Source of the DNA: a virus
Taxonomy: Duplodnaviria; Heunggongvirae; Uroviricota; Caudoviricetes
DNA length: 5,546 nt
Virus record (IMG/VR): IMGVR_UViG_2657244986_000004
Reading direction: 5' to 3' (one strand)
Positions within the stretch are counted from its first letter, which is position 1. Each line of letters starts with the position of its first letter. The position numbers and the translations under genes were made by a program. Shown piece by piece: positions 1,577 to 4,066 of the stretch. The notes below the pieces were generated by a model. The model was given only the letters and a program-made list of their open reading frames with translations. It was not told the DNA's origin and did not search any database.

Positions 1577-1611
1577 CCATTACAAAGCCCATTTACGGGT
1601 GGGCTTGATAA
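1577..1611 (+). repeat. Direct repeat copy A (35 bp), contains a 7-bp stem hairpin
   Basis: CCATTACAAAGCCCATTTACGGGTGGGCTTGATAA, immediately after the stop of the 87-aa ORF. AAGCCCA pairs with TGGGCTT. No T-run follows. It matches copy B at 29 of 35 aligned positions by my hand alignment. Confidence 0.6.
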
Positions 1612-1996
1612 TGAAACCGGAATTTATTCTGGGCCACCAGTTAACGGCAGTACCACGAAACAACCCAAGCCAGTAAGTGGGGAAATAACACTGGCAGCCA
1701 CTGAAAGATGAAGCTCCTGCCTTAAGGCAAAAAAGATTCTTTGTGGTGGCGGACTGATGGAAAGACATCGGTTATTGCAGAGGCCATTCAATGAGTGGTC
1801 TCGACAATGGCTTATACCCTACACGGGATAACTTAACTGATATCCCTTTTAACGGATAAAGGTATTCAAGCCTGACACATCATGCGCTGTATCGTCGCTG
1901 TATTCCCGCATTAACCATGACCGTAGCCCGACGGGGAACACCTTCTGCACGAGTGTGCGGAAAATCAAAGAATTACGAGAACTACTCAATGACTCT

Positions 1997-2030
1997 CCAT
2001 TACAAAGTCTATCTGCGGGGGGCTTGATAA
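1997..2030 (+). repeat. Direct repeat copy B (34 bp), degenerate copy of A
   Basis: CCATTACAAAGTCTATCTGCGGGGGGCTTGATAA. The first 11 nt and last 11 nt are identical to copy A. The hairpin is not conserved. It lies about 60 bp upstream of the 74-aa gene start. Confidence 0.6.
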
Positions 2031-3041: not shown

Positions 3042-3719
3042 ATGTCCATCATTTTTAATGGACACTATCGTATGAAACACCGGACCTGGATCACTGAAGC
3101 TTTACGTCTTCACTTTGAAGAACATTTACCCCGGGTTGTGGCCGGGCGTCGCCTGGGTGTACCAAAATCAACAGTTTGTAGTATGTTCGTGCGCTTTCGG
3201 AGAGCTGGCCTTTCGTGGCCTTTGCCCGCAGGCATGTCGGAGCAGGAACTTGATGCCTGCCTTTACGGACAATTTTCCACGGTACCAGTCGTACGTCCTG
3301 AAAGCACCGTTATATCCGAAGCCCCCGTGGTAAAAAAACGTCCCCGGCGGCCCAACTTCCCTTATGAGTTTAAAATCGCCTTAGTGGAGCAGTCACTGCA
3401 GCCCGGAGCCTGTGTGGCGCAGATCGCCCGGGAAAACGGAATCAACGATAACCTGCTCTTCAACTGGCGCCATCAATACCGGAAAGGTGGCCTGCTGCCT
3501 TCCGGAAAAAATATGCCGGCACTGCTTCCCGTGACGTTAACGCCGGAGCCGGATAATAAAATCCCGGCCCCCGCACAGGAACCAGAGCAGATAAATACAC
3601 CGTCCGACAGTCTGTGTTGTGAGCTGGTTCTGCCGGCCGGAACTCTCAGGCTTAAAGGTAAACTGACGCCGGCGTTATTACAGACACTTATCCGCGAAAT
3701 AAAAGGGAGCAGCCACTGA
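3042..3719 (+). CDS. tnpA: IS66-family accessory protein TnpA (orf1)
   Basis: A 225-aa ORF. The segment ...PRRPNFPYEFKIALVEQSLQPGACVAQIARENGINDNLLFNWRHQYRKG... matches the helix-turn-helix region of IS66 TnpA proteins as I remember them. The start is ambiguous: ATGs at 3042, 3060, 3072 and 3234 are in frame and none has a clear SD. Confidence 0.8.
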   Translation: MSIIFNGHYRMKHRTWITEALRLHFEEHLPRVVAGRRLGVPKSTVCSMFVRFRRAGLSWPLPAGMSEQELDACLYGQFSTVPVVRPESTVISEAPVVKKRPRRPNFPYEFKIALVEQSLQPGACVAQIARENGINDNLLFNWRHQYRKGGLLPSGKNMPALLPVTLTPEPDNKIPAPAQEPEQINTPSDSLCCELVLPAGTLRLKGKLTPALLQTLIREIKGSSH

Positions 3720-4066
3720 TGATATCTCTCCCTGCAGGTTCGCGTATCTGGCTGGTTGCAGGTATCACCGATATGCGAAATGGCTTTAACGGCCTGGCAT
3801 CAAAAGTTCAGAACGTCCTGAAGGATGACCCGTTCTCCGGACACCTGTTCATCTTCCGCGGACGCCGGGGTGACCAGATAAAAGTGTTGTGGGCTGACAG
3901 TGACGGACTGTGCCTCTTCACCAAACGCCTGGAGCGGGGCCGCTTCGTCTGGCCAGTCACCCGTGACGGCAAGGTGCACCTTACTCCGGCTCAGTTATCC
4001 ATGCTTCTTGAAGGTATCAACTGGAAGCACCCGAAACGAACGGAACGCGCTGGAATCCGCATATAA
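3719..4066 (+). CDS. tnpB: IS66-family TnpB (orf2)
   Basis: A 115-aa protein, MISLPAGSRIWLVAGITDMRNGFNGLASKVQNVLKDDPFSGHLFIFRGRRGDQIKVLWADSDGLCLFTKRLERGRFVWP..., the hallmark IS66 Orf2 sequence pattern. The ATG at 3719 overlaps the tnpA stop by 1 nt. Confidence 0.9.
   Translation: MISLPAGSRIWLVAGITDMRNGFNGLASKVQNVLKDDPFSGHLFIFRGRRGDQIKVLWADSDGLCLFTKRLERGRFVWPVTRDGKVHLTPAQLSMLLEGINWKHPKRTERAGIRI

Follow-up and report, generated by a model that had tools for sequence, protein, structure and literature searches.

Hairpins with a conserved foot and a covarying stem at module junctions in the late region of lambdoid prophages

Introduction

What do two similar sequences on either side of a short piece of non-coding phage DNA signify? 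The question is raised by a 5,546-nt stretch of DNA (IMG/VR virus record IMGVR_UViG_2657244986_000004; hereafter, the window), representing the late region of an E. coli lambdoid prophage. In this stretch, two imperfect direct repeats, A (1577-1611, CCATTACAAAGCCCATTTACGGGTGGGCTTGATAA) and B (1997-2030, CCATTACAAAGTCTATCTGCGGGGGGCTTGATAA), bracket a segment of about 385 bp. An earlier note, made from the letters of the window, had considered three origins for this arrangement: a small element that was inserted or excised, a recombination junction between phage modules, or paired binding sites for a regulator. The analysis described here, including alignment and shuffle scores, shows that the repeats are real and that they are two of four members, within the window, of a family of stem-loops of about 40-45 nt. 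The explanation that we prefer, with a probability of roughly 0.6, is an intercistronic RNA stem-loop whose conserved foot doubles as a crossover point for module exchange.

Results

The repeats are copies of an element found beside many different genes

Alignment of A and B over 35 positions yielded 30 matches, four mismatches and one gap (29 matches had been counted before), and the identical 11-nt ends that had been described, CCATTACAAAG and GGGCTTGATAA, are indeed present in both copies. The similarity is above chance. When the halves of the window without its insertion sequence (IS) were compared by gapped local alignment, the score was 43; 200 mononucleotide shuffles gave a mean of 23.4 and a maximum of 31, and 0 of the 200 reached 43. 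The ungapped measure for A and B was marginal on its own (21/26, reached in 1 of 40 dinucleotide shuffles). What decides the question lies outside this DNA: A and B each match one and the same element in many other phages. The true repeat unit is longer than 35 nt and runs to ...GATAATG(G). It has a foot, 5' CCAUUA-CA / GA-UAAUGG 3', which consists of paired bases plus a 2x2 internal loop and surrounds a variable inner stem-loop.

A scan of viral contigs with a pattern derived from the two conserved ends found at least 120 loci. The set analyzed here comprises 126 loci, that is, the 120 pattern matches listed and six annotated loci, and contains 137 hairpin instances. Each phage locus holds one to four copies, and in most loci the repeat is single. 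As the earlier note had hoped to learn from such a search, the same element stands beside many different flanks in other phages: the 30-nt flanks of the 137 instances cluster into 37 left and 39 right flanks, which occur in 69 combinations, and 70 of the 126 loci have only the hairpin in common with the window. With a relaxed foot pattern, there were 147 matches in sense and three in antisense. With dozens of unrelated neighbors, the hairpin marks module boundaries and not the ends of an inserted element. The proposal of a recombination junction between phage modules is supported by this and by the fact that homology breaks exactly at the hairpin edges.

The inspected loci are prophage or phage late regions. 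The element occurs in phages of E. coli, Salmonella, Enterobacter, Pantoea and relatives, including Stx-converting phages. HK544 has two copies only, both between Rz and the terminase genes; HK620 carries the hairpin after hkbL; and phi80 has a copy of the second stem class described below (the C class) directly 3' of its Rha gene. Lambda has no copy. A search of GTDB with one genome per species (185,579 species genomes) found about 26 genuine copies, in Enterobacter, Leclercia, Kluyvera, Yokenella, Siccibacter, Pseudocitrobacter, Pantoea, E. coli and other Enterobacteriaceae. Two further copies, in metagenome-assembled genomes (MAGs) labeled outside the Enterobacteriaceae, are probably due to mis-binning. 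The stem is missing from the other 74 GTDB pattern matches, and the number of non-enteric matches is close to the estimated chance level (roughly 50 in 596 Gb). The pattern also picked up a conserved stretch of 36 nt, CCATTACAAAGAAAACCTTGCACAGTTTCTTGATAA, in six loci (Lachnospiraceae and other gut MAGs); its interior and flanks differ, the family stem is missing, and it is probably an unrelated coding sequence.

A covariance search of the whole window against Rfam 15 (E<=1) returned only a chance match to a snoRNA at 1238-1332. The element is annotated in none of the records inspected; that of HK544 marks terminators and one stem-loop elsewhere, none of them at these hairpins. A full-text search with the 11-mer retrieved unrelated primer sequences only. 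No description of the element was found in the literature on lambdoid boundary sequences, stem-loops and accessory ('moron') genes, a body of work that did not include Clark et al. 2001. The known prophage small RNAs AgvB, AsxR, Pas and STnc100 were rejected as candidates; their place is the pR' site, 5' of the lysis genes (PMC4104026; bioRxiv 10.64898/2026.05.13.724894).

The pairing is maintained by compensatory changes on the sense strand

Among 38 distinct variants of the hairpin, 98.1% of the cells pair, both sides have changed in six of the 14 pairs, and compensation is seen in 22 cells. The covariation score was reached by 0 of 500 shuffles. As a control, the partner was slid by 1-3 columns, and the pairing then amounted to only 27-49%. 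The covariance comparison across homologs that had been recommended therefore had a clear outcome: the stem covaries, and copies A and B both match the family model.

Because the pattern behind this first set had a fixed foot, two more samples were instead assembled via a neighboring gene, and these are the only samples free of the foot-pattern bias. The first was anchored at orf87, the gene 5' of copy A. It comprised 80 loci, and the end of the gene could be placed in 70; one contig stops there, and each of the remaining 69 (69/69) has the hairpin or a near variant (seven cases) directly 3' of the stop codon. The second was anchored at a gene for a 65-aa protein (MTVVLTAKQIEDL...) and also comprised 80 loci. 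The gene end was placed in 60 of these, about 57 of which carry the hairpin, starting 1-5 nt 3' of a TAG, TAA or TGA stop codon. In these 60 loci, two inner stems alternate 3' of one and the same gene, AAGCYCA/UGGGCUU (A class) and GCAGGCA/UGCCUGY (C class), which are five consecutive compensatory pairs apart. The extended sequences of the two classes are aagcYcaYc...ggtgggctt versus gcaggcattc...gagtgcctgY, and the foot CATTACA...GATAATG is common to both. A third stem class in this sample is AGGCGCA/UGCGCCU. The foot also compensates, as CAUCACA occurs with GAUGAUG and, in copy D of the window, AUUGCA occurs with GACAAU.

The wobble pairs that were counted are G.U on the + strand, which is the sense of the late genes, and the covariance model assigned 62-69 bits to sense copies and 21-27 bits to their reverse strands. 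These wobbles and the higher sense scores indicate that the pairing is selected on the sense strand of the late genes. This suggests that the hairpin forms in RNA; folding of that single DNA strand is a less probable option.

The window contains four copies of unequal quality

When the covariance model of the family (R1) was run without filters over the window, four copies were found, all on the + strand:

1574-1615, +: copy A; R1 64.9 bits, E 9e-16; starts 0 nt after the orf87 stop codon
1774-1808, +: copy D, decayed, at the junction of the blocks S2 and S3 (see below); R1 18.5 bits, E 1.4e-3; AUUGCA-GAGGCCA...UGGUCUC-GACAAU
1994-2034, +: copy B, weakened; R1 44.5 bits, E 2e-10; 3' foot GAUAAAG
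2350-2392, +: copy C, second stem class; R1 20.2 bits, E 5e-4; GCAGGCA/UGCCUGU, foot AUUACA...GAUAAUG

Copy A begins with the UAG of orf87, followed by CCAUUA-ca-AAGCCCAUU...GGUGGGCUU-ga-UAAUG. The hairpin that had been described for this copy is present, and it is longer than the 7 bp given for it: a 5-bp outer stem and a 9-bp inner stem are separated by a 2x2 internal loop. With a folding energy of -17 kcal/mol (z = -3.0), it is a stable, G+C-rich stem-loop of the type found in intrinsic terminators. Copy B folds weakly, and the earlier statement that it has lost the hairpin goes too far, because the inner stem AAGUCU/GGGCUU retains six pairs, two of them U.G, and the copy still scores 44.5 bits. 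Copy D is homologous to a copy with the stem AAAGCCA/UGGCUUU at the same place in HK544, and its foot contains a compensatory change from A-U to G-C.

The absence of a U-tract from copy A had been noted before and applies to copy B as well. A U-tract of at least about five U in eight positions follows neither stem (the tail is GAUAAUGA for A and GAUAAAGG for B), nor is there one in the consensus, which ends GAUAAUGG, and the terminator scan flagged no hairpin copy. The TTGATA in both repeats had been suggested as a -35-like hexamer. The promoter scan gave no support for this: a two-hexamer site was found at no copy. The same scan leaves paired regulator sites unsupported, and such sites would not explain the compensatory changes in the stem.

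Hairpins usually start just 3' of a stop codon in the late accessory region

The hairpin invariably has the orientation of the genes' sense strand. Of 94 unique contexts, 60 have an open reading frame (ORF) of 40 codons or more that terminates 0-7 nt 5' of the hairpin; in 36 of these 60 the offset is 0 nt, mostly with a TAG stop codon. The dinucleotide TG follows the hairpin in 128 of 136 instances. A lysis gene (spanin or endolysin) is located upstream on the same strand in 82 of the 137 instances, at a median distance of 962 nt. In the late accessory region of lambdoid phages, most hairpins are found after the lysis genes and before the packaging genes. Among the genes 5' of the hairpin are orf87, genes for KilA-N or Rha regulators, and several small ORFs. 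The genes 3' of it include small genes of the DUF2560 type and genes for proteins similar to the small terminase, with HNH genes slightly further on. In some loci, the hairpin lies directly 3' of a true terminator that ends in TTTTATTG.

Several side observations concern the upstream genes. In two loci, the upstream protein resembles a major tail protein, judged by eye from the sequence and without a family library. In the HK544 locus, a small ORF at 1973-2068 (31 aa) overlaps the stop codon of the KilA-N gene and reads through the hairpin to a TGA in the foot, and another small ORF at about 2260-2330 (23 aa) lies between the block S2 and the second hairpin.

The segment between the repeats is a mosaic

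No convincing ORF had been seen between the repeats, and indeed none of the ORFs inside 1577-2030 matches any PHROG family. Apart from copy D, the interior consists of the following parts:

1612-1773: S2, non-coding block; present in HK97, HK544, HK620 and P22-like phages, missing in phage 2851 and the Stx2 phages listed
1809-1862: S3, two palindromes TTATCCC(N5-8)GGGATAA at 1812-1831 and 1840-1859
1863-1960: S4, non-coding; common to Stx2-type phages and thousands of E. coli prophages, missing in HK97
1961-1996: leader of copy B, 36 nt, GAAAATCAAAGAATTACGAGAACTACTCAATGACTCT

These parts occur in separate combinations. In HK97 the order is hairpin-S2-S3, followed by other DNA. In phage 2851 and the Stx2 phages among the matches, it is hairpin-S3-S4 without S2, and in 2851 copy A is joined straight to the DNA from position 1808 onward. 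HK544 has leader-hairpin-S2-small ORF-hairpin-S3, and P22-like phages have leader-hairpin-S2 and then other genes; in both cases, the homology with the window stops at the 3' end of copy B. Prophages of O104:H4 have a different gene with its TAG joined to an identical copy B and the same right-hand side. In other loci, 431-699 nt of extra cargo separate S2 from S3. A further 39 architectures were recorded, and the 36-nt leader precedes either hairpin-S2 or hairpin-S3-S4. The full arrangement of the window is present in only five of 5,426 complete E. coli genomes. The product expected from recombination between A and B (orf87-hairpin-phrog_6100), searched for with a chimeric query, occurs in 0 of these 5,426 genomes. 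Neither the sequences read nor the three bases tabulated on each side of the copies show an evident target-site duplication.

The separate combinations of the interior blocks and the missing A x B product show that the segment is not gained or lost as a unit. Therefore, the idea of a small element bracketed by A and B is not supported, and alignment with related phages, which had been proposed as a test, revealed no case in which 1612-1996 behaves as one unit. Rather, each hairpin appears to be a junction in its own right, and judging from the sequences compared, the 385-bp interior is a non-coding chain of independently assorting blocks (S2, a decayed hairpin, S3 and S4).

An alignment of S2 from 33 loci contains 1-nt indels, a 58-nt insertion variant and no conserved frame; the ORFs of S2 have no PHROG match, and its conservation does not exceed that of the coding neighbors. 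S2 is taken as non-coding filler or a decayed gene, probably spread by exchange. S4 was matched without annotated features in many genomes (query 494-670). S2-S4 were also considered as a structured RNA and rejected: the fold z is about -2 for S2 on both strands and about 0 for S3-S4, and there is no covariation.

The 58-nt insertion, near the start of S2 in HK620 and three other loci, carries a hairpin of its own (UUUACAUCCCC...GGGUAUGUAAA). The palindromes of S3 are common to HK97, 2851 and HK544. Many right flanks that are otherwise unrelated have this pair 3' of the hairpin, frequently just before a gene start or a terminator, and it is the sequence rather than the pairing that is conserved. 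These palindromes could be operator-like protein sites or hairpins formed by a Shine-Dalgarno (SD) sequence and an anti-SD sequence.

Genes and other features of the window

The window is 99.8% identical to NZ_CP076272 over bases 1-2988, where the homology ends. Its remaining features are:

159-617: Rz spanin
649-672, +: intrinsic terminator 3' of Rz (terminator scan, fold)
819-1316: KilA-N gene
1313-1576, +: orf87 (phrog_875); its TAG stop codon directly adjoins copy A
1577-2030: region of the two repeats
2090-2314, +: 74-aa gene (phrog_6100), 3' of copy B; full-length PHROG match, E 1.4e-54
2450-2854: orf134 (phrog_585)
2989 to window end: IS66-family element

The 74-aa gene has a GGAGG ribosome-binding site 6 nt 5' of its ATG, and it lacks an annotation as a coding sequence in the RefSeq record of the near-identical prophage. 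A longer ORF at 1955-2314, which would take in copy B, has no support from the phrog_6100 profile. The KilA-N stop and the orf87 start, just 5' of copy A, overlap as ATGA at 1313-1316, which suggests translational coupling of this gene pair. An insertion, the IS66-family element, separates orf134 from the small terminase gene. It is missing from NZ_CP076272, in which the small terminase gene stands at this place. Its ORFs are at 3042-3719 and 3719-4066, and a long third one from about 4086 runs past the end of the window.

The terminator at 649-672 was tried as a member of the hairpin family and rejected, as its R1 score of 5.2 bits is not significant. Its flanks (AUCACAAAG...GCAAUAAAUG) resemble the hairpin foot, and within 620-680 the flanks AUCACAAAGUCCAUUUAAUG...CUUUUUGCAAUAAAUG look like the foot and the 5' half of the hairpin. 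HK544 has an annotated rho-independent terminator at the matching place. The resemblance hints at a common ancestry of this terminator and the hairpin family.

Discussion

A probable intercistronic RNA stem-loop with a foot that may serve recombination

The results are best explained by an intercistronic RNA stem-loop whose conserved foot is also the point at which modules are exchanged. The hairpin would act within the long Q-antiterminated late transcript as an intercistronic structure. It could protect the 3' end of the upstream message, serve as a processing site or insulate cistrons from one another. The GAUAAUG beside the stem is AU-rich, as would be suitable for RNase E or another endonuclease, and the helix of roughly 16-19 bp with its internal loop would be compatible with RNase III. 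In addition, the conserved feet of 10-11 nt could be a short patch of homology for phage or host recombination systems, so that genes and non-coding blocks would be swapped, lost or gained precisely at the hairpin; the 385-bp interior would then be a leftover of such exchanges and not the cargo of a mobile element. Phage Rad52-like recombinases are reported to recombine diverged sequences (PMC2327257, PMC3945230).

Several observations weigh against this explanation. The role at the RNA level is one that we infer from sequence comparison, and single-stranded DNA tolerates G.T pairs as well, so that a hairpin of the DNA strand is compatible with the data. The sequence of the foot is conserved beyond its pairing, which a simple stabilizer role does not explain, and in the first set of instances, collected with a pattern that fixes the foot, its conservation is partly due to construction. 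The fold of copy B (-8 kcal/mol) is no better than that of shuffled sequences. The foot as a homology patch is likewise something that we infer: the hairpin interior tracks both flanks, the right one slightly more, and there is no clear crossover point. Conserved intergenic elements may mimic junctions when their neighbors are reshuffled in another way, and crossing-over within the element is thus a candidate process.

Alternative explanations

Could the hairpin be more than a passive patch of homology? That it is an active structure-specific exchange site, or the site of some phage or host factor, which drives the turnover of late-region cassettes, seems unlikely, and the specific version, a dedicated recombination site similar to the integron attC, in which an enzyme recognizes the foot of the folded strand and cassettes are cut and joined, is slightly more doubtful still. 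The outer arms are conserved and the variable center is nevertheless paired, the pairing is strand-specific, and the copies are directly oriented, lie where single genes or blocks begin and end, and have many combinations of flanks; moreover, the unpaired CA/GA of the foot is kept even in the gene-anchored samples, which suggests sequence-specific recognition. However, no recombinase is consistently nearby (the neighbors are KilA-N, Rha, small ORFs and terminase, with no integrase among them), a phage has only 1-4 copies, and the foot, CCATTAC/GATAATGG, contains no attC core sites (RYYYAAC/GTTRRRY). The absence of the A x B product from the 5,426 genomes also argues against such a site, and relaxed homologous recombination by Rad52-like recombinases would be enough to produce the junctions (PMC3945230, PMC2327257). 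No more probable than the active exchange site is a promoter or operator, to which the 3' foot would contribute a -10-like GATAAT (or the -35-like TTGATA), with the 5' foot kept only by pairing. GATAAT agrees with TATAAT at five of six positions, the C class has the shape of an extended -10 (TGYGATAAT), the downstream genes begin about 16-66 nt 3' of the element, the hairpin interior is slightly better correlated with the right flank than with the left, and the PeSL elements of T4-type phages do unite a stem-loop with a promoter (PMC2839356). Besides the negative promoter scan, the A class has neither the TG extension nor a -35 at 16-18 bp, the foot variants GATGAT and GACAAT keep the pairing and are no -10 sequences, and the covariation of the inner stem is left unexplained.

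The hairpins might also be relics of the intrinsic terminators of moron genes, functionless passengers that have shed their U-tract. Copies B and D are visibly decayed, the flanks of the terminator at 649-672 resemble the foot, and some hairpins directly follow a true terminator ending in TTTTATTG. Such an origin is improbable, about as much as the attC-like site, because the pairing is maintained via many compensatory changes, two or three wholly different stems share the same foot, and GAUAAUG, and not a U-run, follows the copies read and the consensus, which is unlike random decay; family-wide compensatory changes indicate continuing selection. Two further explanations have very little to recommend them. 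The repeats could be the ends or the footprint of a small mobile element with the body 1612-1996, since direct repeats 420 bp apart surround non-coding DNA. Yet the interior is a mosaic of blocks that are found separately and in other orders, terminal inverted repeats, an evident target duplication and a transposase are lacking, neither an empty site nor an A x B junction was found in the 5,426 genomes, and in most loci the repeat is single. A coding or recoding function, for instance read-through of the adjoining TAG into the open frame (PLQSP.TGGLDN...), is equally remote. A TAG directly precedes the CC in 58 of the 137 motif-ascertained instances, the in-frame extension after orf87 of the window has 44 codons, the frame is also open after the KilA-N gene of HK544, and the median in-frame extension is 30 codons, compared with 20 and 9 in the other frames. 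This difference between frames is small, however; the extensions differ wholly between contexts, are broken by 1-nt indels in S2 and match no PHROG family, the stop codons and the spacing vary (TAA, TGA, offsets 1-7), and the stem variants freely alter the putative peptide.

Relation to known systems

The closest parallel to an intercistronic stem-loop that doubles as a crossover point is provided by the PeSL cassettes of T4-type phages, conserved intergenic stem-loops in direct orientation that flank single small genes in hyperplastic regions (PMC2839356, PMC4122927). Recombination between flanking copies has been demonstrated (PMC2839356), and a regulatory role combined with that of a recombination linker has been proposed (PMC2839356, PMC4122927). 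As in that system, an intergenic stem-loop is found as direct repeats around variable cargo, with hairpin-cargo-hairpin in the window and HK544 versus a single hairpin in 2851. PeSLs, however, combine a sigma-70 early promoter with a terminator-like stem-loop in lytic myoviruses, whereas the hairpin described here has no detectable two-hexamer promoter and no U-tract and resides in the late operon of temperate lambdoid phages, with 1-4 copies per genome.

For lambdoid phages, homologous exchange of modules at 'boundary' or 'linker' sequences has been proposed (Susskind and Botstein 1978, and for HK620 Clark et al. 2001, both cited after PMC3233612). Like the boundary sequences, the hairpin is short, conserved and intergenic, homology starts or stops at its edges in 2851, HK544, P22-like phages and O104:H4 prophages, and HK620 itself carries it. 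As far as we found, what differs from the boundary concept is the strand-specific compensatory evidence for a fold. The idea of a conserved intergenic linker is thus already known, and the evidence from strand-specific covariation is, as far as we found, what is added here.

The hairpin also shares features with three other types of elements. As in integron attC sites, the ends are conserved, the center is variable with a conserved structure, the fold is strand-specific, and there is one site per cassette in the same orientation; unlike attC sites, it is much shorter and has no integrase, no R/L core sequences and no sign of site-specific cutting. Repetitive extragenic palindromic (REP) sequences and bacterial interspersed mosaic elements (BIMEs) are imperfect extragenic palindromes with conserved pairing that are thought to stabilize the upstream mRNA; they occur in hundreds of copies per enterobacterial chromosome and are linked to a RAYT transposase. 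The hairpin is similarly an imperfect palindrome of about 35-40 nt just 3' of stop codons, with conserved pairing, and is often preceded by GTAG, as REP sequences are, though in some contexts only. In contrast to REP/BIME, it is confined to prophages and has few copies, not many dispersed ones, it has no link to RAYT, and its sequence is unrelated by inspection. With the intrinsic terminators of morons, it shares a G+C-containing hairpin directly 3' of a gene; it differs from them by GAUAAUG in place of a U-tract and by the lack of a match in the terminator scan.

Implications

In practical terms, the hairpin flags real gene ends in a poorly annotated region, as illustrated by the unannotated 74-aa gene. 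It is also a candidate for a new RNA motif of mRNA processing or stability in the late operons of enteric phages. Whether the mosaicism of lambdoid phages arises by targeted exchange at conserved linkers or by random illegitimate recombination followed by selection has been debated, and the hairpin is a concrete, widespread and covariation-supported test case for this debate. If it were an active exchange site, part of lambdoid mosaicism would be targeted and not the residue of random illegitimate recombination, and the hairpin, folded from one strand, would be a counterpart, in temperate phages, of the integron attC or of the PeSLs of T4.

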